Of a stretch of DNA of 10,718 nucleotides, positions 1 through 10,718 are shown piece after piece. A program made the position numbers and the translations under genes. Numbering within the stretch: the first letter of the stretch is position 1; every line of letters starts with the position of its first letter. Source of the stretch: a virus (lineage: Duplodnaviria > Heunggongvirae > Uroviricota > Caudoviricetes); IMG/VR virus record IMGVR_UViG_2541047968_000015, positions 1 to 10,718 of that record; one strand, written 5' to 3'. The notes beneath the pieces are model-generated. The model worked only from the letters and a program-made list of their open reading frames with translations. It was not told the origin of the DNA and made no database searches.

Positions 1-339
1 TGCAGCACGACGGTATAAGCCCCTGGACTCCAGTTCTTCCGCCTGGCGGGTCAGGCACAAAATCACCCTGGGATCGTTAGTGCCGACATAGAAATTGCGC
101 ACAGGTATGGTTTCAAGAACAGGTTGCAGTTTCTCCTCCTGCGATATCTCAGCCTGGTGTGGGAAATGTCTGCGTGTTTTCCCTTCACAACAGTGAGCCA
201 CACGGCCACTCTGACGTAACTTGCTTGCTGACTGCAGAACGCACTGTCGTGAGTAACCAGCAAAAGCATCCGCAATGTCACCTGAAGTACACCCCGGATG
301 GGCTTCAATGAATTTCTGTACATCGTTCATCAGACTCAT
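1..339 (-). CDS. Hypothetical protein, 3' end beyond window start (113 codons in window)
   Basis: Not in the ORF track. Hand translation of the minus strand from ATG (339-337) is open to position 1: MSLMNDVQKFIEAHPGCTSGDIADAFAGYSRQCVLQSASKLRQSGRVAHCCEGKTRRHFPHQAEISQEEKLQPVLETIPVRNFYVGTNDPRVILCLTRQAEELESRGLYRRAA. A GGGGG Shine-Dalgarno and the upstream gene's TGA stop sit directly 5' of the ATG (AGGGGGTGAtcATG). Function not recognised. Confidence 0.5.
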   Translation of the reverse strand, partial: MSLMNDVQKFIEAHPGCTSGDIADAFAGYSRQCVLQSASKLRQSGRVAHCCEGKTRRHFPHQAEISQEEKLQPVLETIPVRNFYVGTNDPRVILCLTRQAEELESRGLYRRAA

Positions 340-341
340 GA

Positions 342-1325
342 TCACCCCCTGAATCCTGTCGGGATCTGGCTGTAGTCCACGTTGTCGTAACTGGCTTTGA
401 AGTACGGGTCCTCGCGTCTGGCTGCAGATACCGCAGGAACTTCCCAGGATTCTTCGAAATGACGATCCGGACCAAAGAACGTGACAGCCTGTTTCACAAA
501 TTGTGTGCCGCTATTGCCCATCGCAGATACCCAGCCCGCGTAGCGTTTCACACCTTCCAGCATGGCTTCGGGGTTTACCCCCTCGTTCAAACGGGCTTTC
601 CAGGCTTTGAAGGCTGCTGATTTTGAATTGCCACCAGCACGTTTGGGATATTCCTGCCAGGCCTGTTCAAATTCCGGTGAATATTCCTGTCGGGCAGAAC
701 GCGCTGGCGCAGACGCGTCAGCGGATGCATCAATAGTGTTTTTAGTCTCCGTTGTAATCTCTGTAGTAATCTCTGTATTTGTATCAACATTCGGCGTATC
801 CCCTGTTCCGTTATGACGTCGGGGGGTGTTCCGTTTTAACGTAATAGCTGTATCGCTGATTGCATTATTGCTGTTACTTTCTGGCGAAACAGAAGAAGGT
901 GTGGTGATGGCCGCAATTGCCTGTGGGTTGATCCCGACAAACAAAATATTGCTGCATTTCACCCCATCGAGCATTTCCACCGTGCGTAAATCCAGAGTAA
1001 TAAACCCTGCATCGCGCAGACGCTTCAGCGCATCTGCGGTTTCCCTTTTCCCGAAACCAAACTGCTCAGCAAACGCCTGGTAGCTTCTTTGCAGTTTGTC
1101 GCCCTGAAAACGCTTGCGATATCCCAGCAACGCTCCGGTGTGCTCATCCCTGACCTCTGTCGGGCGGTACCAGTAAACGATCTCTGAAAGCAGAGCGATA
1201 GCCGTCGCATCCGGACGCCCACTGGGTAGTCGAATATATTTCCACCAGGTCGCAGGTGTAACATTGCCGGAAATATTAATTTGACCAATAGCCATAACTT
1301 CCGGTGTGGGGGCGTAACGGCTCAT
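342..1325 (-). CDS. Phage replication initiation / replisome-organiser protein (O-like)
   Basis: 327-aa ORF with AGGAGG 4 nt upstream of the ATG. The C-terminal region (FEQAWQEYPKRAGGNSKSAAFKAWKARL ... GTQFVKQAVTFFGPDRHFEESWEV) has the W/K-rich signature I associate with phage replication-initiator families. The ATG overlaps the upstream gene's stop (ATGA). Position in the cro-side operon matches lambda O or Rac ydaU. Confidence 0.75.
   Translation of the reverse strand: MSRYAPTPEVMAIGQINISGNVTPATWWKYIRLPSGRPDATAIALLSEIVYWYRPTEVRDEHTGALLGYRKRFQGDKLQRSYQAFAEQFGFGKRETADALKRLRDAGFITLDLRTVEMLDGVKCSNILFVGINPQAIAAITTPSSVSPESNSNNAISDTAITLKRNTPRRHNGTGDTPNVDTNTEITTEITTETKNTIDASADASAPARSARQEYSPEFEQAWQEYPKRAGGNSKSAAFKAWKARLNEGVNPEAMLEGVKRYAGWVSAMGNSGTQFVKQAVTFFGPDRHFEESWEVPAVSAARREDPYFKASYDNVDYSQIPTGFRG
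754..777. repeat. Perfect tandem direct repeat, 2 x 12 bp (gtaatctctgta), inside the replication gene linker region
   Basis: Seen directly: 754-765 and 766-777 are identical. It encodes the TEITTEITTE linker of the replication protein. A 9-bp direct repeat tgttccgtt lies nearby at 805-813 and 828-836. Confidence 0.7.
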
Positions 1326-1621
1326 ACAACCTCCTTCCGCGGCATGAGAATTGTGTAGCCACGCGCAGGTTGTAGTCTGGCTTTTGCATCAATAGTAAGC
1401 GTTGCAATTTTTCGGATATGAAGATAACCAGCTCTTTCCAGTGCCAGGGTTTCCCTGAATATCGCTTGCTTAGAACAACAGCAGAAATCAGCAAGCACCT
1501 GATGATCAATAACTCTCTCGCCTTCACCGTCTGAAGAACCCGACATCAAAACACGCAACATAATCAGGCGCTGAATCGGGTTATCGAAAGCACATCCGCA
1601 CACAAACTGAAAACAGTTCAC
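1322..1621 (-). CDS. Hypothetical small protein (99 aa)
   Basis: ORF with GTG start overlapping the upstream stop (GTGA) and its own stop overlapping the replication gene's ATG (ATGA), so it is translationally coupled within the leftward operon. No family recognised. Confidence 0.5.
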   Translation of the reverse strand: MNCFQFVCGCAFDNPIQRLIMLRVLMSGSSDGEGERVIDHQVLADFCCCSKQAIFRETLALERAGYLHIRKIATLTIDAKARLQPARGYTILMPRKEVV

Positions 1622-1842
1622 GCCACACCTCCCAGACGCTTAAACATTTTTCCGGAGCAAAAGGCTATAAGCGGCATACTGACGCGGTAATTACGGCCCA
1701 GCGGTTCACAAATCACCTTCTGACATTCACGGTCAACCAGGCTAACACGTAGAACATGCCCTGCAGGCGTGGTGTACCACTGACCCGGACGAGGACAACG
1801 GAAAGTATGATTGGTAAACCGTTTGAAAATATTCCGGATCAT
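1618..1842 (-). CDS. Hypothetical small protein (74 aa)
   Basis: ORF whose ATG (1842-1840) overlaps the Rha-like stop (ATGA); coupled within the leftward operon. No family recognised. Confidence 0.5.
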   Translation of the reverse strand: MIRNIFKRFTNHTFRCPRPGQWYTTPAGHVLRVSLVDRECQKVICEPLGRNYRVSMPLIAFCSGKMFKRLGGVA

Positions 1843-2384
1843 TTGCGCCCCCTTACCTCTGAAGGGTTCAGCGACAAATTTATGAGACTGGCCAGTAGCG
1901 CCGCGTCGTTGATGCGGTCATACAGACTTACAGCCAGCGGGGATTCGGCTTTTGCCAACATGGGATAAAGCTGCTGCAGCCAGACCTTGTGGATTACCGA
2001 CAGGTGGGAGTAAAGCACGCTGGCGTTATCTGCGGCATCGCTCAGCGTGGATGGCTTTGAAAGCAGTTTTTCCATCTGGTTAAAGGCATTGATGTATGCC
2101 TCTTTGAACTGGGCAGCACGTTTACCCGTGAAACCCATAGCAAGAAACGCAAAGCCGTCGCGGGTTATTTGATAGCAAGGTAGTTTGCGGCCTGTGCAAT
2201 CGGTGTAATCACTCACCGAAAAATTGCGGGCAGTGAATGATGCGGAACATTCAAGCGTGCGGATCTTTTTCAGTACATCGTCATGACGTTTGGAGAAGAA
2301 GTTGGCAACAGCCAGGGATGAAGTAACAGCCTGACCATCAACGATGGCAATTTCAGGTTGAGTGAGGGTTGGGATCGTAGCCAT
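1839..2384 (-). CDS. rha: Phage regulatory protein Rha-like (pRha domain), 181 aa
   Basis: Internal ATG at 2384-2382 preceded by GGAGG with an 8-nt spacer. The protein starts MATIPTLTQPEIAIVDGQAVTSSLAVANFFSKRHDDVLKKIRTL ... YQITRDGFAFLAMGFTGKRAAQFKEAYINAFNQME, matching the Rha family signature (F.KRHD.VL..IR ... DGF.FL.MGFTGK.A..FKE.YI.AF). The ORF track merges it with a 201-codon upstream in-frame extension. Confidence 0.8.
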   Translation of the reverse strand: MATIPTLTQPEIAIVDGQAVTSSLAVANFFSKRHDDVLKKIRTLECSASFTARNFSVSDYTDCTGRKLPCYQITRDGFAFLAMGFTGKRAAQFKEAYINAFNQMEKLLSKPSTLSDAADNASVLYSHLSVIHKVWLQQLYPMLAKAESPLAVSLYDRINDAALLASLINLSLNPSEVRGRK

Positions 2385-2987
2385 GATGGCAGCCTCCGTA
2401 TGCAATGGATAACTTCCACCACCGGAAACGCCAATTTCGCTGGTGGTGAACTGAGCAGGGTTGGCGTAACCGGCGCATACGGAAACCGGCGCACCTTTCG
2501 GTGCCCCCACCCAGCCCACCATAATTTGGGTATAGCTGAGTTGTAGCAACAAAAAAGACGCTAACGCGCCAATTGTCGCCGTATGCAATTCCAGGACGCC
2601 AATCCCGACACCCGCTTTATAAGGTGCCTGAACAGTGTAACGTCCCGGAATGGCAGAATCAATGTGCTGGTGGTCCTTCACACTCAACAAAATCACGCCT
2701 GAATTTCCACAAAGGACTAAAGCACTCATGCTGGTAGTCTTTGCGAAGATAGATAACGCGCTGTGTTTCTGGCTCCCAACGAATAACATGGACATAAAGC
2801 CCTCTTCCGTCACGAAACCAGCGGTTAAGTTCCTGCACAACTCGCCCCCCACAGTCAGGTAAAGTTCTCTGTGGTTACTTACAGCCAGGTGATTTGGTAA
2901 TCTGCATTCATGCCGTAACAACAGGTGTTCAGCGACGCTGACCACCAGCTGTTGCGACAAACGGTTATTTGCCGTTAAACTATTCAT
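2385..2987 (-). other. In-frame open segment (201 codons) between the YdaT-like and Rha-like genes; coding status unresolved
   Basis: ATG at 2987-2985 overlaps the YdaT-like stop (ATGA) and the frame runs without a stop into the Rha ATG. The translated sequence is low in charged residues (about 11 percent), rich in S/L/A/G/V, and matches no family I recognise. Could be a real N-terminal domain, a separate or fused gene, or a fortuitously open frame. Confidence 0.3.
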
Positions 2988-3541
2988 GCGTTAGTTTCTC
3001 CACAACCAGAAGCAATCGACGCCACGACGCCCGGAGCTGCACACTCGCGGGCGTTACTATTTTCTGGAGCGCAGAAGATTTTGTAGACCAGTGCTGCATG
3101 CTCCTGGAGCTTCGAAATTGAGAGGTACAGCTCGTCGTTAATTGCTGTCTTCTCATGCGGTTCCACTACACCGTCTTCGATTGCTGAACGAATCTGTCTG
3201 GAATAACTGCCGATCTGTTCAATGACTTCCAGCAGACGCTGGTTAATATCGGCGTTGTCCACATCCTCGACGTCAGGAAGAGACACAAAGACGCCATTTG
3301 CAGACTGCGCCACAGCGTCAGCAATGAAGTGAGTTCCACCAGCACGTTGTAAAATCATTGCCCATCCCAGCGGGAAAATCTGATCGCCATCTGCACGAAG
3401 GCGGTTGAATAATGCGTTCTCTGTTACATCCAGCCACTCAGCAGCTTCAGCGTAACCCCCCGGCAACGCCGCGATAGTTTTTCTGACAGCTTTCACGTAC
3501 CACTCAGGCTGTTTTTCCACTTTCCAGTGATGATTACCCAC
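2984..3541 (-). CDS. CII-like / YdaT-like regulatory protein (185 aa)
   Basis: ORF with GTG start (3541-3539) preceded by GGAGG with a 6-nt spacer, overlapping the end of the cro-like gene. Its position directly after the cro-like gene matches lambda cII or Rac ydaT; the family assignment is by position and weak recollection only. Confidence 0.55.
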   Translation of the reverse strand: MGNHHWKVEKQPEWYVKAVRKTIAALPGGYAEAAEWLDVTENALFNRLRADGDQIFPLGWAMILQRAGGTHFIADAVAQSANGVFVSLPDVEDVDNADINQRLLEVIEQIGSYSRQIRSAIEDGVVEPHEKTAINDELYLSISKLQEHAALVYKIFCAPENSNARECAAPGVVASIASGCGETNA

Positions 3542-3794
3542 GGCTTACCTCCTGTTCCTGTGGTTTAAACCCATTCTGGTTTTGGCTAGATTGAAAACGT
3601 GCCGGATAAAGAATCTGCATTTCGCTGATTTCACCCTTAAAAAAATTGGCCAGACGTTCTGCAAGATCGATAGATGGAATTTGTTCCAGTCTTTCAATAC
3701 GACTCAGCGTCGCTGGATTGACCTGAACGCCCGCAGCAACATGCTGCAAAGTAAATCCGTGCGCCTTACGCACATTCCGTAATGGTGATTGCAT
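3534..3794 (-). CDS. cro: Cro-like HTH (XRE-family) transcriptional regulator, 86 aa
   Basis: ORF with ATG at 3794-3792 and GGAGG 5' of it. Helix-turn-helix motif (GFTLQHVAAGVQVNPATLSRIERLEQIPS). Divergent from the repressor gene across a 97-bp operator region. Confidence 0.8.
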   Translation of the reverse strand: MQSPLRNVRKAHGFTLQHVAAGVQVNPATLSRIERLEQIPSIDLAERLANFFKGEISEMQILYPARFQSSQNQNGFKPQEQEVSRG

Positions 3795-3891
3795 ATAACC
3801 TCCACATATTGCGTGATGAGCATATTATTTCACGCAAATATTTTGCGCAAGTTGATTTGCTTAACGCGCAATAAAGAAATGTAATAAACGC
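3795..3891. promoter_or_regulatory. Divergent immunity-region promoter/operator segment (PR-like for cro; cI promoter unresolved)
   Basis: Minus-strand promoter candidate: -35 TTGCGC (complement of 3845-3850), 17-nt spacer, -10 TAATAT (complement of 3822-3827). Inverted repeat TTGCGTGA-N13-TCACGCAA at 3809-3837 overlaps the -10 and start region. Palindrome TTGCGCAA at 3843-3850. A 15-bp TTGC-N7-GCAA site at 3857-3871. Confidence 0.6.
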
Positions 3892-4584
3892 ATGAACATA
3901 GGAAACCGAGTCAGACAACTTCGCCAGGCGAAGAACATGAAAATCGCCGATCTCGCTGAAGCAATAGGAGTGGATGCGGCGAATATCTCACGCCTGGAAA
4001 CAGGTAAGCAGAAACAATTCACTGAACAAGCCCTGAGTAATATTGCCAGGAGCTTAGGTGTTGATATTGCTGATCTCTTTACCTCAGACGTCAAAAGTAA
4101 TACTGTATGTAAAAACAGTATTAGTGAGGATGTTGCGCAGGTGAAGGATGTATTCCGTATTGAAATGCTGGATGTCAGTGCCAGTGCGGGAAATGGCCTT
4201 ATCCAGGGCGGTGATGTCATTGATGTGATTCATGCCATTGAATACAGAACTGATAATGCTGTATCGATGTTTGGTGGACGACCAGCAAATCACATTAAAG
4301 TTATCAACGTTCGTGGGGACAGTATGTGTCCAACCATTGAGCCAGGAGATCTCATCTTCGTTGATATCAGTATCAATCAGTTTGATGGGGATGGTATATA
4401 TGTATTTGGTTTTGATGATAAAATTTACGTCAAACGACTGCAAATGATACCTGATAAACTGCTGGTAATTTCTGATAATCAGATTTACCGCGAATGGGGA
4501 ATTACCAGCGAAAACGAACATCGGTTTATGGTCTTTGGAAAGGTCTTAATCAGTCAGTCACAAACCCTTAAGCGACACAATTAA
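3892..4584 (+). CDS. cI: cI-like prophage repressor, N-terminal HTH plus C-terminal S24 (LexA-like) peptidase domain, 230 aa
   Basis: N-terminal HTH (MKIADLAEAIGVDAANISRLETGKQ). C-terminal S24 signature with catalytic Ser in GDSM (VINVRGDSMCPTIEPGDLIFVD) and downstream Lys (IYVKRL). Divergent from the cro-like gene. Confidence 0.9.
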   Translation: MNIGNRVRQLRQAKNMKIADLAEAIGVDAANISRLETGKQKQFTEQALSNIARSLGVDIADLFTSDVKSNTVCKNSISEDVAQVKDVFRIEMLDVSASAGNGLIQGGDVIDVIHAIEYRTDNAVSMFGGRPANHIKVINVRGDSMCPTIEPGDLIFVDISINQFDGDGIYVFGFDDKIYVKRLQMIPDKLLVISDNQIYREWGITSENEHRFMVFGKVLISQSQTLKRHN

Positions 4585-4605
4585 CCCCCTACCTCAACAT
4601 CAATT

Positions 4606-4630
4606 AGCCACCAGAAGGTGGCTTTTCATT
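4606..4630 (+). terminator. Rho-independent terminator downstream of the repressor gene
   Basis: Perfect 7-bp stem AGCCACC (4606-4612) / GGTGGCT (4617-4623) with loop AGAA, followed by TTTCATT. Confidence 0.8.
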
Positions 4631-4640
4631 ACCCACCAAA

Positions 4641-4694
4641 TTGCATATCTCGCAATAAAAACACTTGCATAATGCGCAACTTCATTTTATCTTT
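4641..4694 (+). promoter_or_regulatory. PL-like operator pair and candidate rightward early promoter
   Basis: Two 15-bp TTGC-N7-GCAA sites (4641-4655 ttgcatatctcgcaa; 4665-4679 ttgcataatgcgcaa) share the half-site motif of the cro/cI intergenic sites. Candidate -35 TTGCAT (4665-4670) and weak -10 TATCTT (4688-4693) with a 17-nt spacer. Promoter hexamers are weak; the operators are the firmer observation. Confidence 0.45.
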
Positions 4695-5123
4695 CTTTCC
4701 AGACCTACAAACAAGGTACTAACAAAATTTGGTTGTAACACGGCGTATGGCACATGCGTCGTTAGCGGTCTGGGGACGTTAAAGGGGACAATCCACTCCT
4801 TGCTCGGGCAAACAAACCAGGTAGCCGGAATGTGCAAGTCAATGAGGATGCTGATAAGACGCCTAACCAGCGTGGCGATTCGGTTTGACGCCTGGGAAGA
4901 GACCAGGACGCAACGATGAGAGCATTTATGGAGCCGCGACAAAGTGTGGTGCCGTAACTGGCTAAGTGCTCTCAGCGTTGTGGTGAATGCGCAGGCTGAT
5001 GCGCGAAAGACATTGCAGCTATTGCGGAAAAGAGCTGTTCGGCGGGGCAATTAAACGCCCGTGAGAGTCTGAAATAACCGCAAGCCGGAGATCAGCACCG
5101 GTCACCACAACAGCCACTGCTTT

Positions 5124-5170
5124 GGCGGTACCAGTTTGTACACTTGCTTCCGGCTGGTACCGCTCTTTTT
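5124..5170 (+). terminator. Hairpin with T-tract (candidate intrinsic terminator or attenuator) in the leader of the rightward operon
   Basis: Perfect 10-bp inverted repeat GCGGTACCAG (5125-5134) / CTGGTACCGC (5154-5163) with a 19-nt loop, followed by TCTTTTT (5164-5170). The loop is long for a canonical terminator. Confidence 0.45.
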
Positions 5171-5259
5171 ACAAAACAGAGAAGAGCATCACCGGACGAC
5201 GGGCTCATAACCCAATCCATCCGGGCGGCTGCCACCGCAGGTGTTCTTCTCTGTTTTGT
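5171..5259. repeat. Perfect 15-bp inverted repeat with 59-bp spacer, immediately upstream of the RdgC-like RBS
   Basis: ACAAAACAGAGAAGA (5171-5185) and its exact reverse complement TCTTCTCTGTTTTGT (5245-5259). The left arm abuts the T-tract of the preceding hairpin; the right arm ends about 22 nt before the GAGGAAAA Shine-Dalgarno. Confidence 0.7.
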
Positions 5260-5293
5260 GGAGAAACTAATACATTGTGCAGAGGAAAATAGA

Positions 5294-6211
5294 ATGAAAT
5301 TACCAAAATTTCGTAACGCAATTGTGTACCGAGCAACATTACCTAGTATACAGGCTATTGAAGGTCATCTTCTCGAACTCCCTTATTCTGAAATCGGGGA
5401 AACAGAATTTTCACGGTCCTCTTTTGTAGAGAATCCTGTCACTGGTGAACTGGTAACTCCGATATCTGGTGGGTACGCAATGGTAATCCGTCATGATCAG
5501 AAAATAATTCCCCGACATGTCGTCATGAAAGAAGCTAATTCTCGAATCCAAACAATCGAAAATATGTCCGGGAATAAATTAAAGCGTGCCGAACGACTGG
5601 CCATTATTGATAACGTACGAGTAGATCTATGCAAACAGGCATTTGTTAAGTCTACTCTGATTCTTGCATTGTACAGCACTGATGAGAAATTATTGGTAAT
5701 CAACACAACCAATAAAATAATAGCCGGTATGGTATGCGCAATGCTGATTAAGGTTGTCGGTTCAGTGAAAACAGAAACAATCAACATCAGTGATATCAAG
5801 AATGGACTGACTACACGCCTGAATAACTACATCAATGGTGCAGCCAATGCATTTGAAGGATTCACTGTCGGAAATTATATTCAGCTATCACGCTACGCAG
5901 ATCAAAAGGAAATTATTCGCTACTCAGCTGAGCATGAGTCAATTCAAAGCGAACTGGCCGATAGCCTTAGTAGTAGTTTCACTGCTGATAAAATGGAGTT
6001 ATCCGGTTGCGGTGTGACCTTCATTCTTACCGAAAATTTCCATTTTTCGCGCATCAATACTCAATCTCAGACATTTAATGATGAAGATGATAAAGCATTC
6101 CAGTGGCGTCATCAGACTGGCGCTGACCTTTTCCAATTCAGCAAGGTAGTTAATTTGATGTGTGACCTTCTTTCTTACAAAGAAGATAAAAGCCAAAATC
6201 CAACAACTTAA
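5294..6211 (+). CDS. RdgC-like recombination-associated DNA-binding protein (305 aa)
   Basis: ATG at 5294 preceded by GAGGAAAA. The N-terminus MKLPKFRNAIVYRATLPS parallels RdgC (MLWFKNLMVYRLS...), and further blocks (AMVIRHDQKIIPRHVVMKEANSRIQTIE; LILALYSTDEKLLVINTTNKIIAGMVCAMLIKVVGSVKT) align with my recollection of E. coli RdgC. The track's TTG-start extension (5144) is rejected. The gene is noticeably AT-rich relative to its neighbours. Confidence 0.8.
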   Translation: MKLPKFRNAIVYRATLPSIQAIEGHLLELPYSEIGETEFSRSSFVENPVTGELVTPISGGYAMVIRHDQKIIPRHVVMKEANSRIQTIENMSGNKLKRAERLAIIDNVRVDLCKQAFVKSTLILALYSTDEKLLVINTTNKIIAGMVCAMLIKVVGSVKTETINISDIKNGLTTRLNNYINGAANAFEGFTVGNYIQLSRYADQKEIIRYSAEHESIQSELADSLSSSFTADKMELSGCGVTFILTENFHFSRINTQSQTFNDEDDKAFQWRHQTGADLFQFSKVVNLMCDLLSYKEDKSQNPTT

Positions 6212-6215
6212 AAAA

Positions 6216-6259
6216 ATTGCAGCAATCATCCCATGTTAAATGGGCTGGATTGCTGCAAT
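6216..6259. repeat. 12-bp perfect inverted repeat (ATTGCAGCAATC / GATTGCTGCAAT) with 20-bp spacer between the rdgC-like and HD genes
   Basis: Arms at 6216-6227 and 6248-6259. The spacer contains a nested CCCAT/ATGGG mini-hairpin. An A7 run (6209-6215) precedes it, so on the minus strand it reads as stem plus U-tract. Confidence 0.6.
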
Positions 6260-6301
6260 CAAAATTCAGAGCGGTGCAGCGCATATAACGTGGAGAACAA
6301 A

Positions 6302-6838
6302 ATGTCATTTATTAAAACTTTTTCCGGGAAGCATTTTTATTATGACAAGATAAATAAAGACGACATCGTGATTAACGATATCGCGGTTTCCCTTTCAAAT
6401 ATCTGCCGCTTTGCCGGTCATCTTTCTCACTTCTACAGTGTCGCCCAACATGCGGTGCTTTGCAGCCAGCTGGTGCCGCAGGAATTTGCTTTTGAAGCGT
6501 TAATGCATGATGCAACAGAAGCGTATTGCCAGGATATTCCCGCTCCACTGAAACGCCTTCTTCCTGACTATAAACGGATGGAAGAAAAAATAGACGCCGT
6601 AATCCGTGAGAAATACGGGTTACCCCCGGTTATGAGCACGCCTGTGAAATATGCCGATCTCATCATGCTGGCAACCGAACGCCGCGATCTCGGGCTTGAT
6701 GATGGCTCTTTCTGGCCAGTACTGGAAGGTATCCCGGCAACAGAAATGTTCAAAGTTATTCCACTGGCTCCGAGCCATGCCTACGGGATGTTTATGGAGC
6801 GCTTTAACGAGTTATCGGAGTTACGCACATGCGCATGA
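6302..6838 (+). CDS. HD-domain phosphohydrolase (YfbR-like 5'-nucleotidase fold), 178 aa
   Basis: ATG at 6302 preceded by GGAGA. Metal-binding HD signature: H in VAQHAV, HD in EALMHDATEAY, and downstream D in ADLIMLATERRD. The track's longer start at 6233 lies inside the inverted repeat and is rejected. Confidence 0.75.
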   Translation: MSFIKTFSGKHFYYDKINKDDIVINDIAVSLSNICRFAGHLSHFYSVAQHAVLCSQLVPQEFAFEALMHDATEAYCQDIPAPLKRLLPDYKRMEEKIDAVIREKYGLPPVMSTPVKYADLIMLATERRDLGLDDGSFWPVLEGIPATEMFKVIPLAPSHAYGMFMERFNELSELRTCA

Positions 6839-7440
6839 ATGTTTTCGAAATGGAAGGGTTTCTTCGCGGGAAATGTGTACCACGAGATCTGAAAGTGAAT
6901 GAAACAAATGCTGAATATCTGGTGCGTAAATTTGCTGAAGCGGAGGCCAAGATTTTGGCTCTGTCCGAAGACCAACAGAAATCGATTGAGTCAATTAAGC
7001 AGGCTGATGCAGCTGTTAAGTTGGCACACGAGAAGTTTTCGGCGCTGGCGGCGGAGAATGCGGGGCTGAAACACGCAATGGCCGTAACTCTTGAGCATGT
7101 GTCGGTCACGGATGCAGGGCAGGCTGGTGTTGCTGCAATGATTATCAACGATGCCCTGCACCACAGCGAAACTCCAGCCACCGATGCTTTCCTGGCTGAA
7201 ATTCGTGCGGAAGCACGCAACGAGGGGATTAACTATACCGCAAGCCGTCTTGCTGCTGCTTTCAATCACGGATTTATCAATAAGTCTTTACGTGAAGTTT
7301 TCGACGTTACACGCATGATTCTGTCAGCGAAAGAAGAGTTGGCTAATGAACCACACCCGATTGATGGCCTGTCCGGTGAATATGCGGAGAAATCCCTAGA
7401 AGAATGGGCGGAACAGATTCGCAAAGGAGGCAACCAGTGA
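6829..7440 (+). CDS. Hypothetical coiled-coil protein of the Ea22-like accessory region (203 aa)
   Basis: ATG at 6829 with GGAG 8 nt upstream, overlapping the HD gene stop. Ala/Glu/Lys-rich heptad-like N-terminal half. Family uncertain. Confidence 0.65.
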   Translation: MRMNVFEMEGFLRGKCVPRDLKVNETNAEYLVRKFAEAEAKILALSEDQQKSIESIKQADAAVKLAHEKFSALAAENAGLKHAMAVTLEHVSVTDAGQAGVAAMIINDALHHSETPATDAFLAEIRAEARNEGINYTASRLAAAFNHGFINKSLREVFDVTRMILSAKEELANEPHPIDGLSGEYAEKSLEEWAEQIRKGGNQ

Positions 7441-7661
7441 GCGGAAAAAGAATGACTAACAGAGAGCTTGTCGATGCCGCGATTAAGCTTGCTGGTGATT
7501 TTTATTCAATGATGGGGTACACGCATCGCCCAGGCTTCAAATATTGGGAGTCTCCTCACCCGCAAGAGCAACTGGTATTTCAAATGGCCTGCCGTGCTTT
7601 TGAGGTTATTTGCGGTTCTGATGTGATGGACGCCGTTGCCGACTTGGAGGATGAAGAGTGA
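7437..7661 (+). CDS. Hypothetical small protein (74 aa, GTG start)
   Basis: GTG at 7437 overlaps the upstream TGA (GTGA) with GGAGG 6 nt upstream. The track's longer 7404 start lacks an RBS. An in-frame ATG at 7452 is an alternative start. Confidence 0.6.
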   Translation: MSGKRMTNRELVDAAIKLAGDFYSMMGYTHRPGFKYWESPHPQEQLVFQMACRAFEVICGSDVMDAVADLEDEE

Positions 7662-8023
7662 GCGAGATTAACTATCAGGCACTGCGTGAGGCAGCAGTAG
7701 CAATTGAAACAGTGGCAACGCCTCAAAAATTGCAGGCGTTTCGGATGAAGGTCACACCGTCGGTGGTACTGGCGCTGCTGGATGAAATTAAGCGCCTGGA
7801 GGACACAAATATTGATGCTATGTGCCGAATTGCAGAACTGGAAGCGAGGGAAGTCGAGTTACCGGATGGCTACGAACCCCGTATGGGCCACCCAATAAAT
7901 AGCGGTGAGCGGGTGGTAATGATGCCGCACCACTTTGGTGGATGGCTGGACCGCTTCGACGTCGAGCACGCATTGCAGGCAGCGGGGATCAAATTCAAAA
8001 CAGCGGGGGTTGAGTACGAATGA
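7658..8023 (+). CDS. Ead/Ea22-like protein (121 aa)
   Basis: GTG start overlapping the upstream stop (GTGA) with GGAGG 7 nt upstream. The N-terminal motif INYQALREAA resembles the conserved start of Ead/Ea22-like proteins as I recall them. Confidence 0.6.
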   Translation: MSEINYQALREAAVAIETVATPQKLQAFRMKVTPSVVLALLDEIKRLEDTNIDAMCRIAELEAREVELPDGYEPRMGHPINSGERVVMMPHHFGGWLDRFDVEHALQAAGIKFKTAGVEYE

Positions 8024-8253
8024 TTGAGGGTATTAGCAATAAATCGTTGAACACAGCATGTGTCGACGGTGGGTTGTTGTACAAAGTGACGTTTACGCAA
8101 ATCGACAACGAAGATAACGCATTCACTGTGATTTACACGTCGCCAGCGATGGCGCAGAAGTGGGTGGATCTGCACAGGCTATGTGGTTTTCGTGTTGAGT
8201 GGGGGTGCTATGAGATGCGATGCAGATGGCATCATCGGGGGGATGAAAAATGA
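8020..8253 (+). CDS. Hypothetical small protein (77 aa)
   Basis: ATG overlaps the upstream stop (ATGA); G-rich stretch upstream. No family recognised. Confidence 0.55.
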   Translation: MIEGISNKSLNTACVDGGLLYKVTFTQIDNEDNAFTVIYTSPAMAQKWVDLHRLCGFRVEWGCYEMRCRWHHRGDEK

Positions 8254-8627
8254 GCACTACGCTTGAGCAATGGCTGGAACAGCAGCACGGCAAAATTGAT
8301 GTTGATTGCGGCTGTGTGAGCACTGAAACGCTTATGCACTGGATGCGTGTGGCGTATGAGGCTGGCAACTCTCCGGTAACTCCGGAGAGTTGGATAAGCT
8401 GTAGTGAGCGAATGCCAGAAATGGGAGAGCGACAATGCTATGTGTTAGCTGCTGACTTTAAAAACAACTACCCACCAAACATCCCCAACACTCAGGTCGG
8501 CGTATATGGCGACTGGTTTAATGATGGCAAGCCCACTTGGGATGACGGTGATGGCGAAGACCTGTATCTCAAGGAGGTAACCCACTGGATGCCGCTGCCA
8601 GAACCGCCGCAAGAGGTGAATCAATGA
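8250..8627 (+). CDS. DUF551-like phage protein (125 aa)
   Basis: ATG overlaps the upstream stop (ATGA). The C-terminal motif ...GDWFNDGKPTWDDGDGEDLYLKEVTHWMPLPEPP matches my recollection of the DUF551 signature (HWMP.P.PP). Confidence 0.65.
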   Translation: MSTTLEQWLEQQHGKIDVDCGCVSTETLMHWMRVAYEAGNSPVTPESWISCSERMPEMGERQCYVLAADFKNNYPPNIPNTQVGVYGDWFNDGKPTWDDGDGEDLYLKEVTHWMPLPEPPQEVNQ

Positions 8628-8707
8628 GCTGGCCTGATGCAATCGTAACTCTGGGGGTGGTATTCGCAGCAGCGTTTGTTGTGTTCTCGATTTGTCGATG
8701 GGGATAA
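8624..8707 (+). CDS. Candidate 27-aa single-pass hydrophobic peptide
   Basis: Hand-translated: ATG at 8624 overlaps the DUF551 gene stop (ATGA), giving MSWPDAIVTLGVVFAAAFVVFSICRWG then TAA. It exactly fills the gap before the next gene. Below the ORF-track size cutoff. Confidence 0.35.
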   Translation: MSWPDAIVTLGVVFAAAFVVFSICRWG

Positions 8708-8711
8708 CCAC

Positions 8712-8954
8712 ATGTTCGCTTTGATTCAACGCGGGCAGATATACACCGATAGTGCTGGCTACCCGATAAAAATTGTTCGCTGCATAAACAACACTGTGTT
8801 GTACAGAAGAATGGATGGGCGAACACAGTCGGTAAAAATAAACGATTTTAATGAACTGTTTGAACGGATCGATCACCAGGAATACCGACAAATTCTGGCA
8901 GAAACAGAGCAGGAAGCTCATCTGAAAAAATTACGAGCCATGAAAAGGAAGTAA
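8712..8954 (+). CDS. Hypothetical small phage protein (80 aa; possibly DUF4222-like)
   Basis: ATG at 8712 with GGGGA 7 nt upstream. The track's TTG start at 8676 overlaps the small peptide ORF and is rejected. The pattern IQRGQIYTDSAGYPIKIV...VLYRR...F resembles small DUF4222-type proteins, but this is a weak recollection. Confidence 0.55.
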   Translation: MFALIQRGQIYTDSAGYPIKIVRCINNTVLYRRMDGRTQSVKINDFNELFERIDHQEYRQILAETEQEAHLKKLRAMKRK

Positions 8955-8957
8955 ACA

Positions 8958-9104
8958 ATGAATAAAGCATTTGAACAATGGGTCCACCAGCGTTACGGCA
9001 ATCGCTATGACCTGACGCGAGATGTTGACGGTTTCTACTGTCGTGAAATTGTGAAACGAATGTTTGAAGTGTGGTGCCACTGCCGTGGGCTGAGTGTTGT
9101 GTGA
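8958..9104 (+). CDS. Candidate small Cys/His-containing protein (48 aa)
   Basis: Hand-translated: AGGAAG 8 nt upstream of ATG 8958, giving MNKAFEQWVHQRYGNRYDLTRDVDGFYCREIVKRMFEVWCHCRGLSVV then TGA at 9102-9104. It fills the gap before xis. Below the track cutoff. Confidence 0.45.
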   Translation: MNKAFEQWVHQRYGNRYDLTRDVDGFYCREIVKRMFEVWCHCRGLSVV

Positions 9105-9112
9105 GGTAATGC

Positions 9113-9349
9113 ATGGGCAATGTGATTCAACTGGCTCCCAATGAATGGGTTTGTGAAAGCGTTCTAATCGCAATTACCGGGCTCAAACCAGGCACAATTC
9201 TTCGGGCCCGGAAAGAATGCTGGATGGTTGGAAGAGAGTATATTCACGTATCACCAGACGGTAATCCAAAGCCTTCCAGTGAATGTATGTATAACAGAAA
9301 AGCAATAGGTGCCTGGGTCGCTTCAATGAAAAACAAACAACCTGGGTGA
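9113..9349 (+). CDS. xis: Excisionase-like protein (78 aa)
   Basis: Immediately upstream of the integrase. The segment ILRARKECWMVGREYIHV parallels lambda Xis VRRWVRECRIFPP..GREYLFH. GAGGT lies upstream of the ATG. Confidence 0.65.
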   Translation: MGNVIQLAPNEWVCESVLIAITGLKPGTILRARKECWMVGREYIHVSPDGNPKPSSECMYNRKAIGAWVASMKNKQPG

Positions 9350-9404
9350 TTTAATGCCATGAAGTATGTAAGCTCGTATCGCTCTTGGGCGTCTGGAGGT
9401 ATCA

Positions 9405-10718
9405 ATGGATAAAGTCAAATATCCAACAGGCGTCGAAAACCACGGCGGCACATTACGCATCTGGTTTAATTTTAAAGGTAAACGTGTCAGGGAAAATCTT
9501 GGTGTCCCTGACACTGCCAAGAACAGGAAGATCGCCGGGGAACTGCGGACATCGGTATGTTTTGCCATCCGCACAGGAAGCTTTGATTATGCTGCACAGT
9601 TCCCTGACTCCCCCAACCTTCAGGCTTTTGGGGTAAGTAAAAAAGAAATTACGGTGAAGGAACTTGAAGAAAAGTGGCTGGATCTGAAACGAATGGAAAT
9701 CTCTGCAAATGCATTCAATCGCTATGAATCCGTTGCAAGAACGATGGTTTCGAAAATTGGAGGCAGTAGACTGGTGTCATCGGTAACCAAAGAGGAATTG
9801 CTGTATATCAGGAAAGATTTGCTAACCGGGTATCAGAATTCAACGAAAAACAAAGCAGCAGCAAAAGGACGGAGCGTCGTTACTGTAAATTATTACATGA
9901 CGACAATCGCTGGAATGTTTCAGTTTGCTGCAGATCACGGTTACTTAGAAGCAAATCCCTTCCAGGGAATTAAGCCTCTTAAAAGAGCCAGGGCAGAGCC
10001 AGATCCGCTAACTCGTGACGAATTTATTCGCCTGATAGATGCTTGCCGACATCAGCAGACGAAAAACCTGTGGTCATTGGCTGTGTACACAGGAATGCGT
10101 CACGGTGAACTGGTCTCCCTGGCCTGGGAAGATATCGATCTGAAGGCAGGAACAATTACCATCAGGCGCAATTATACGAAACTTGGTGAGTTCACTCTAC
10201 CGAAAACTGAAGCAAGCACAAACAGGGTTGTGCACCTTATCCAGCCCGCTATCAGTGTCCTGAAAAATCAGGCTGAAATGACAAGACTGGGTAAGCAGTA
10301 CAACATCAAGGTGCAACTACGTGAATATGGACGTTCAGTGAACCATGAATGTACTTTCGTGTTTAACCCTCAAGTGGTTAGAAAAAGCGAACAGGTAGGT
10401 TTTGTCTACAAAGTCGATTCTGTAGGTGACTCATGGGAAACAGCCATTAAGCGTGCAGGGATCAGGCATCGAAAGGCATACCAGTCACGACACACTTATG
10501 CGTGCTGGTCATTATCTGCCGGAGCAAACCCAAGCTTCATTGCCAGCCAGATGGGCCATGCAAGTGCCCAGATGGTATTCAATGTATACGGAGCATGGAT
10601 GACTGACAGCAATGCAGAACAGATCGCAATGCTGAATCAGAAGCTGACAGATTATGTCCCAATGATGCCCCATAGTCACCAAAGTGACACCAGAGGCTTA
10701 TTAAAATCAGTAAGTTAA
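9405..10718 (+). CDS. int: Tyrosine site-specific integrase, IntR/Rac-type with N-terminal arm-binding domain (437 aa)
   Basis: GGAGGT 5 nt upstream of the ATG. N-terminus PTGVENHGGTLRIWFNFKGKRVRENLG is typical of the arm-type DNA-binding domain. C-terminal catalytic region has RHTYACWSL ... MGHASAQMVFNVYGAW with the Tyr nucleophile. The stop codon coincides with the window end. Confidence 0.9.
   Translation: MDKVKYPTGVENHGGTLRIWFNFKGKRVRENLGVPDTAKNRKIAGELRTSVCFAIRTGSFDYAAQFPDSPNLQAFGVSKKEITVKELEEKWLDLKRMEISANAFNRYESVARTMVSKIGGSRLVSSVTKEELLYIRKDLLTGYQNSTKNKAAAKGRSVVTVNYYMTTIAGMFQFAADHGYLEANPFQGIKPLKRARAEPDPLTRDEFIRLIDACRHQQTKNLWSLAVYTGMRHGELVSLAWEDIDLKAGTITIRRNYTKLGEFTLPKTEASTNRVVHLIQPAISVLKNQAEMTRLGKQYNIKVQLREYGRSVNHECTFVFNPQVVRKSEQVGFVYKVDSVGDSWETAIKRAGIRHRKAYQSRHTYACWSLSAGANPSFIASQMGHASAQMVFNVYGAWMTDSNAEQIAMLNQKLTDYVPMMPHSHQSDTRGLLKSVS

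Follow-up and report, generated by a model that had tools for sequence, protein, structure and literature searches.

Small regulators of the bacterial inner membrane (AcrZ, MgtS, MgrB, KdpF, CydX and PmrR) are shorter than 50 residues and consist of one transmembrane helix with almost no soluble part. They are under purifying selection, are missed by gene callers and probably act through helix-helix contact in the membrane. The type I toxins (Hok/Gef, TisB, DinQ, ShoB, Ibs and Ldr) are also small hydrophobic peptides, 19-50 amino acids in length. Fremin et al. in 2022 reportedly predicted small-gene families in bulk from phage genomes. Here, a 27-codon open reading frame (ORF), referred to as the mini-gene, is described at positions 8624-8707 of a viral DNA of 10,718 nucleotides (IMG/VR record IMGVR_UViG_2541047968_000015, positions 1 to 10,718; the whole stretch is called the window). 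The window belongs to a lambdoid Escherichia coli prophage, whose early-left (pL, exo-xis) operon occupies the plus strand. Comparison with relatives makes it very probable that the mini-gene is a translated and selected gene for a membrane helix. A fuller reading, which is probable on the same evidence, is that the product of this real gene is a micropeptide of 27 residues that spans the inner membrane once, acts within it and is expressed early.

The micropeptide would share with the small membrane regulators all of the properties listed above; unlike them, it is phage-borne and coupled in an early phage operon. These regulators (AcrZ, MgtS, KdpF and CydX) appear to be the best analogy. The analogy does not extend to sequence, in which no relationship to them was found; the best KdpF score (TIGR02115) was 14.7 bits versus a cut-off of 26.85. 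Within lambdoid phages the exo-xis genes are driven by pL and are among the first transcribed, within minutes of infection, and in Shiga toxin (Stx) phages transcription of ea22 exceeds that of N (PMC10834534). The region influences prophage induction, and hence Shiga-toxin production, and its gene content has been called "dark matter" (PMC10834534). The mini-gene has the operon and presumably the early timing of the exo-xis genes (those for Orf60a, Orf61, Orf63, Orf73, Ea22 and Ea8.5) and, like them, is a mosaic and dispensable accessory gene, usually located after a DUF551 or Ea22-type gene. In contrast to the micropeptide, the known exo-xis proteins are soluble and 60-180 residues long, and no 27-residue membrane peptide is mentioned in the exo-xis literature consulted (PMC10834534). 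The "Entero67K" families are similar in that they comprise short, hydrophobic, conserved and unannotated ORFs that often overlap a neighbor by 1-4 nucleotides (PMC11188072). The mini-gene is new and uncurated but belongs to a known kind of gene and is not a new system, with no surprising mechanism so far. Its main features are the following.

8624-8707, plus strand: 27-codon micropeptide gene MSWPDAIVTLGVVFAAAFVVFSICRWG, including the stop codon TAA (read directly and supported by relatives)
8624-8627, plus strand: ATGA overlap between the start of the mini-gene (ATG, 8624-8626) and the stop of the upstream gene (TGA, 8625-8627), read directly
8612-8619, plus strand: Shine-Dalgarno site AGAGGTGA of the mini-gene, read directly, 4 nucleotides 5' of the ATG and within the last codons of the upstream gene (Q-E-V-N-Q)
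8630-8701, plus strand: predicted continuous transmembrane helix, codons 3-26 (W3 to W26), from AlphaFold2 and hydropathy
8700-8704, plus strand: GGGGA, ribosome-binding site of the downstream DUF4222 gene, within the last codons of the mini-gene (W-G) and 7 nucleotides 5' of the ATG at 8712

The frame runs for 27 codons from the ATG at 8624-8626 to the TAA at 8705-8707 and fills the 84-base gap between the DUF551 and DUF4222 genes, leaving 4 nucleotides between its stop and the ATG at 8712. A sequence-only reading of the window had noted both the exact fit into this gap and the ATGA overlap, and each was found as described. The overlap is a putative site of termination-reinitiation coupling. 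In most relatives GGAGGTGA is present at the same spacing from the start codon, including contexts with an unrelated upstream gene, and the GGGGA-type layout of the DUF4222 ribosome-binding site also recurs in the relatives examined. In random sequence, the chance that an ATG stays open for 26 more codons is about 0.29 ((61/64)^26). A 27-codon ORF in one sequence is therefore not significant alone, and the gene call rests on comparison with relatives.

Homologues of the mini-gene were found in lambdoid and Stx phages (933W, VT2-Sakai and ArgO145), PhiR phages, P1-like phage-plasmids and the lytic Vequintavirinae myovirus Av-05. They form about 10 allele groups with 64-86% nucleotide identity (14-36% of nucleotides differ). 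Start, stop and the length of 27 codons persist despite different flanking genes: the upstream gene encodes DUF551, Ea22 fused to DUF551 or one of several proteins without a Pfam match, and the downstream side is taken by DUF4222, by hok/sok, by a hairpin opposite a convergent toxin-antitoxin pair or by other small genes. The block of homology extends from the Shine-Dalgarno site to the stop codon, limits that would be expected for a mobile gene-sized module. Two samples of loci were drawn independently. The mini-gene was present in 50 of 80 loci fetched by the DUF4222 protein alone, and all 50 copies were intact. Loci fetched by an exact 21-nucleotide anchor, CCGCAGGAGGTGAATCAATGA, which covers only the Shine-Dalgarno site and the start, gave 117 usable copies encoding 21 distinct peptides; 115 had exactly 27 codons, one had a premature stop and one had lost its stop. 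The junction with the upstream gene was the ATGA overlap in 55 of 85 distinct contexts, an overlap of 1 nucleotide in 13 and of 14 nucleotides in 7, while in 10 contexts the upstream ORF ended 35 nucleotides 5' of the ATG of the mini-gene.

The frame of the mini-gene was open in each of 25 unique nucleotide sequences, and the other two sense frames were stopped in all 25. Among 51 distinct peptides M1 was invariant and W3, P4, A6, G11, A15, R25 and W26 were nearly so. Codon 2 encoded Ser, Thr or Asn in every one of the 51 and began with A (AGC, ACC, ACT, AAT or AAC) in 25/25 unique sequences, which preserves the upstream TGA. Most intact length variants were in frame, either through a 3-codon deletion that leaves 24 residues (phage SJ46) or through hexanucleotide expansions. 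The 24-residue variant, MSWPEAFAIVGVAMAIAAIFIFWG, which lacks the arginine, is found in P1-like elements, namely Salmonella phage SJ46 (L182 1001-1075) and the E. coli plasmid p50EVA-2 (L183 1001-1075). The expansions, (Ala-Met)n or (Ala-Val)n in mid-helix, give peptides of 29-35 residues (P0065, P0072, P0075, P0080, P0081, P0089, P0102 and P0107), and several of these alleles occur on multiple contigs. They could represent slipped-strand variation of helix length.

Selection on the reading frame was apparent from two measures. Summed over pairs of allele groups, the ratio of nonsynonymous to synonymous differences (pN/pS) was 0.42 in the frame of the mini-gene versus 0.92 and 1.50 in the other sense frames, and it was about 1 or more in four of the five other frames. 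With parsimony reconstruction on a neighbor-joining tree, 39 of 101 changes were synonymous (0.386) versus 0.251 expected (p=0.0018), an excess confined to this frame. Conservation of the frame with synonymous variation, which the sequence-only reading had put forward as a check, is thus borne out by these values and by the 115 of 117 copies with 27 codons. One antisense frame also gave a low pN/pS (0.40) and was open in 25/25 unique sequences. These values would suit an explanation with no gene on the plus strand, in which the ORF is a by-product of conserved noncoding DNA (a recombination linker or an RNA element) or of part of an antisense gene; a 27-codon ORF is not in itself improbable, and mosaic lambdoid genomes are known to have boundary sequences that are conserved. 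This explanation is very improbable. The antisense frame shares wobble positions with the sense frame, so that its low ratio mirrors the sense signal; neither its start nor its ends are conserved, and it usually lacks an ATG. An Rfam match is also absent, and the invariant ATG, the conserved Shine-Dalgarno site, the fixed position of the stop and the in-frame-only length changes are signatures of coding sequence. The antisense ORF of the window was rejected as a gene:

8445-8921, minus strand: 158-amino-acid antisense ORF spanning the end of the DUF551 gene, the mini-gene and the start of the DUF4222 gene

It crosses three unrelated modules and is not conserved as a unit elsewhere. In other contexts, antisense ORFs over the mini-gene likewise begin and end at nonconserved positions, usually without an ATG; their stop-to-stop lengths vary from 34 to 263 codons over all open frames and from 37 to 151 codons in the frame that is always open. 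The antisense openness is a by-product of hydrophobic sense codons.

Two further alternatives accept translation but assign it another purpose. The ORF might be a relay that passes ribosomes from the upstream to the downstream gene and yields an inert peptide. It is packed tightly on both sides, the downstream ribosome-binding site lies within its last codons, and enterobacterial intergenic regions often contain small ORFs coupled in this manner (PMC11188072). A relay would not account for purifying selection on the amino acid sequence or for the conserved length, hydrophobic core and end residues, and the ORF is kept where the DUF4222 gene is absent or replaced by something unrelated (the hairpin in ArgO145, hok/sok in 933W, and others in Av-05 and P1-like elements). 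A mere relay is improbable for these reasons. Alternatively, the peptide could form the C-terminus of the upstream DUF551 protein and anchor it in the membrane, the two being linked through a programmed -1 frameshift or a fusion of frames. The frame of the mini-gene is -1 with respect to that of the upstream gene, and many micropeptide fragments are labeled "DUF551 domain-containing protein, partial" by NCBI. The junction GTG AAT CAA TGA contains no slippery heptamer, however, and at least six unrelated C-terminal sequences precede the mini-gene, among contexts that include the 10 in which the upstream ORF ends 35 nucleotides before the ATG. M1 and the Shine-Dalgarno site are conserved, which would be needless for a fusion; the micropeptide, in a different frame with its own start, does not match DUF551 (PF04448); and the full-length DUF551 proteins in the database cluster of the micropeptide end in ...PPQEVNQ without it. 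The anchor is the least probable of the explanations considered.

The product of the mini-gene has the properties of a single-pass small membrane protein, namely one predicted hydrophobic helix as long as the bilayer with flanking charges. In the window, core residues 6-24 have a grand average of hydropathy (GRAVY) of 2.63 and no charged residue; over 15 tabulated peptides the core was uncharged in every case, with GRAVY values of 1.85-2.76. The N-terminal end carries a charge of -1 (one acidic residue) and the C-terminal end +1 (one arginine) in nearly all alleles. AlphaFold2, given a 24-sequence alignment led by a 40-amino-acid N-extended form (P0076), predicted a helix at residues 16-39 of that form, equivalent to residues 3-26 of the micropeptide, and the mean predicted local distance difference test (pLDDT) score was 97 and 92 over the last two 10-residue blocks. 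The single transmembrane span proposed from the sequence alone is therefore supported by both hydropathy and structure prediction. W3 and W26 are 23 residues apart, about one bilayer thickness, which would place a tryptophan at each membrane interface. By the positive-inside rule, the N-terminus would be periplasmic and the C-terminus cytoplasmic. Small residues form two conserved stripes, G11/A15/S22 and A6/A13/A17/C24.

Other kinds of membrane-associated or exported peptide were considered and rejected. A lipoprotein or secreted peptide does not fit, since the N-terminal end is acidic (MSWPD) and has no positive n-region. Nor is there a lipobox ([LVI][ASTVI][GAS]C) for a lipoprotein: C24 is preceded by F-S-I and followed by only 3 residues, and is replaced by F in allele B. 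Holins are encoded in the lysis cassette, are at least about 60 amino acids long and have a charged C-terminal tail. The mini-gene lies in the early-left operon beside xis and int, and its product is 27 amino acids long with a 3-residue tail.

A toxin that damages the membrane, in the manner of type I toxins (TisB, DinQ and Hok) or of a minimal holin, is the most substantial competitor. Such a peptide would oligomerize and depolarize or permeabilize the inner membrane, with the result that the host is slowed or other phages are excluded. The micropeptide is comparable to type I toxins in length and hydrophobicity, a homo-oligomeric bundle would be consistent with the all-round conservation of its helix and the two stripes of small residues, and in 933W-like phages the mini-gene is often located directly 5' of hok/sok loci. 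The helix core, however, has no polar or charged residue that could line a pore. Unlike type I toxin genes, the mini-gene has a strong ribosome-binding site and is coupled within a long operon, which is the opposite of tight translational repression; no antisense RNA, structured leader, promoter-like or Rfam signal was found nearby, its start overlaps the upstream stop, and it lies outside the lysis cassette. The toxin is accordingly an unlikely explanation.

The preferred reading remains that of a micropeptide that works inside the membrane. Ribosomes that end the upstream gene at its TGA would restart at the overlapping ATG, aided by the strong Shine-Dalgarno site, and those that end the mini-gene would be released 4 nucleotides before the DUF4222 start. 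To judge from this anatomy, production of the micropeptide would begin soon after infection or induction, along with that of its neighbors, and insertion into the inner membrane would follow. Its small residues might then pack against the micropeptide itself or against the transmembrane helices of a larger membrane protein of host or phage. Because a soluble part and polar core residues are both lacking, its site of action is most likely within the membrane. By analogy with the known regulators, it is tentatively suggested that the micropeptide modulates a membrane protein and does not harm the membrane itself. The host interference proposed in the sequence-only reading is plausible.

Several observations weigh against this reading or against parts of it. 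The mini-gene is missing from 30 of the 80 DUF4222 loci, which have a different upstream junction, so it is dispensable to many phages. The five lambdoid cryptic prophages of strain K-12 (Rac, CPS-53, DLP12, e14 and Qin) carry no homologue (positive controls worked), which probably explains why small-protein studies in K-12 missed it. Decayed copies exist, including one with a premature stop (L212) and, in the protein database, forms with a lost stop or a frameshift. Such disrupted forms are rare in the unbiased samples and over-represented in the protein database, because gene callers report the ORF only when it has been accidentally lengthened. In the 24-amino-acid variant on p50EVA-2, ATA replaces ATG. 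On this and similar plasmids an in-frame ATG 7 codons upstream becomes open, and the ATA form may reflect either decay or a shifted start. The supplements of a ribosome-profiling catalogue of the enterohemorrhagic E. coli strain Sakai contain no match; the entries seen (part 1 of 9) are at least 93 bp long, so that an 84-bp ORF probably could not be contained. Conservation is not confined to one face of the helix, as the observed moment of helical conservation was reached in 3356 of 10000 shuffles. This gives no support to a single binding face, and the all-round conservation fits a homo-oligomer or a helix buried between partner helices. Finally, the function and target of the micropeptide are wholly inferred.

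A more specific and rather speculative proposal, which we consider possible but doubtful, is that the micropeptide is a dedicated phage intramembrane inhibitor that is made within minutes of infection or induction and binds one host membrane machine. Candidate targets may include the FtsH/HflKC protease complex, which sets CII levels, and a sugar-transporter channel through which phage DNA enters. If this were true, the micropeptide would shift the lysis-lysogeny decision or exclude superinfecting phages, and the (Ala-Met)n and (Ala-Val)n expansions would tune helix length. It would also be the smallest functional gene of the exo-xis "dark matter," present in Shiga-toxin phages, P1-like plasmids and even lytic phages.

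The surrounding operon is laid out as follows.

3892-4584, plus strand: CI-like repressor
between the CI-like repressor and the Ea22-like gene, plus strand: RdgC-like gene, YfbR-like nucleotidase and hypothetical genes
7658-8023, plus strand: Ea22-like gene
8020-8253, plus strand: hypothetical gene
8250-8627, plus strand: short DUF551 (EaA/Ea22-CTD-like) gene, the upstream neighbor of the mini-gene (Pfam DUF551, E=1.2e-20)
8712-8954, plus strand: DUF4222 gene, start ATG 8712 (RefSeq coding sequence; Pfam DUF4222 from residue 4, E=6.7e-16; phrog_285 aligns over 1-80)
8958-9104, plus strand: 48-amino-acid hypothetical gene (full-length PHROG match to phrog_3871, E=3.5e-35)
9113-9349, plus strand: excisionase
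9405 onward, plus strand: integrase
8676-8711, plus strand: TTG-initiated 12-codon extension of the DUF4222 frame, a rejected reading

Overlaps of 4 nucleotides (GTGA or ATGA) occur at four consecutive junctions, at 7658, 8020, 8250 and 8624, which suggests a chain of translationally coupled accessory genes. The mini-gene thus conforms to the layout of the operon itself. Its placement in an accessory operon, as the sequence-only reading had it, stands as regards membership; the operon is more precisely the early-left (exo-xis) operon, which is switched on at infection or induction, and for this reason the micropeptide is unlikely to be made in a quiet lysogen. No promoter-like site (7600-9500) and no plus-strand terminator-like site was detected near the mini-gene, and Rfam gave no meaningful match there, only one sub-threshold chance hit (E=0.6). 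The TTG start at 8676, which the earlier reading had judged the less likely one, was rejected. Other allele contexts lack the extension or have it at a different place, none of 18 related loci offers an alternative start in that frame, and the DUF4222 frame is stopped within the mini-gene in 25/25 unique sequences. RefSeq uses the ATG at 8712, from which the Pfam and PHROG profiles align from the first residues.

In near-identical genomes, RefSeq treats the equivalent DUF551 coding sequence as a pseudogene "missing N-terminus," with a start 21 nucleotides later. The DUF551 ORF of the window has its own ATG overlapping the stop of the previous gene (ATGA, 8250-8253), as its neighbors do, and may encode an intact short protein rather than a remnant. 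The 48-amino-acid gene at 8958-9104 accompanies DUF4222 in several phages and is annotated only as hypothetical. The prophage DNA is near-identical (99.5%) in several E. coli chromosomes, where it adjoins yecN and cmoA. Positions ~1-7600 of the window diverge from the otherwise 99.5%-identical prophage of strain EC9682 (L181), in which SPFH and ORF6N genes occupy the place of the RdgC-like and YfbR-like nucleotidase genes. This difference is a typical mosaic exchange within the early-left operon.

Fifteen annotated records with a copy were inspected, and the mini-gene is missing from the annotation of each, including two near-identical (99.5%) RefSeq genomes, in keeping with the sequence-only reading. 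These records comprise RefSeq E. coli chromosomes and a plasmid, Stx1 and Stx2 phages, 933W, ArgO145, Av-05, PhiR phages and P1-like elements. In 12 of them the upstream coding sequence ends 4 nucleotides into the ORF; in an Stx1 phage it overlaps the second ATG by 1 nucleotide, and the two records with the 24-amino-acid variant have a TAATG overlap or a lost ATG. The reference annotations of 933W, Stx2a_WGPS2, ArgO145 and every RefSeq E. coli genome inspected lack the mini-gene. The default lower limit of Prodigal is 90 nucleotides, and the mini-gene falls below it. Gene callers systematically overlook small membrane proteins, a known class, and the mini-gene is a clean example for better small-gene annotation rules.

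Some alleles are nevertheless in GenBank as "hypothetical protein," "bacteriophage protein" or "putative prophage protein," and fragments are mislabeled as partial DUF551 domain-containing proteins. The exact 27-residue sequence of the window is not a standalone entry in a collection of 15 billion proteins; it is contained in the N-extended P0076 (427 contigs), where the frame is open upstream. Pfam, NCBIfam, PADLOC and PDB gave no significant match. Two alleles matched phrog_4612 and phrog_35838 weakly (E=0.019 and 0.085) and the allele of the window did not; these families may have been built from N-extended calls of the same ORF. A search of 5.8 billion proteins with a profile, based on an alignment headed by a 45-amino-acid N-extended database entry, returned 123 clusters. 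Among the 120 listed, none had a functional name and all came from Escherichia, Shigella or Salmonella except one metagenomic "Bacteriophage sp." No description of the micropeptide was found in the literature, and the supplements of an Enterobacteriaceae microprotein catalogue contain no match in the part available (PMC11188072).

The mini-gene is widespread, is present in Shiga-toxin phages and lies within a region that affects prophage induction, to which it adds a conserved membrane component. DNA resembling the allele of the window was found in 947 of 5426 complete E. coli genomes (at least 17%), with 149 places on plasmids. Matches to the micropeptide were found in 94 phage records and 226 plasmids, mostly from Escherichia with some from Salmonella and two from Klebsiella. 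Most of the matching plasmids are non-mobilizable, and the copies that were opened, together with records listed at ~92-120 kb, look like P1-type phage-plasmids. In a scan with one genome for each species, matches were confined to Escherichia and Shigella apart from tiny contigs of Acinetobacter idrijaensis (L092, JQCU01000559.1, 369 nucleotides) and Xanthomonas pisi (L094, NZ_JPLE01000323.1, 431 nucleotides). The peptides of these two contigs are identical to those of an E. coli P1-like phage (L176) and 933W. The record PP818812.1, "Actinobacillus phage vB_Apl-pPE4," carries an E. coli phage allele. These occurrences look like contamination or mislabeling and not real spread, so that spread outside the Enterobacteriaceae is not supported.

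In 933W-like Stx phages the mini-gene lies 150-300 nucleotides 5' of hok/sok (L085 1501-1950, which is 933W; L179 1201-1651; L180 ~1211-1660). In 933W, the minus strand near sokW gave a weak match at the peptide level; no inverted repeat underlies it at the nucleotide level, and it was dismissed as chance. In one database protein, P0134, a deletion has fused the first 15 residues of the micropeptide to a Hok-family sequence.

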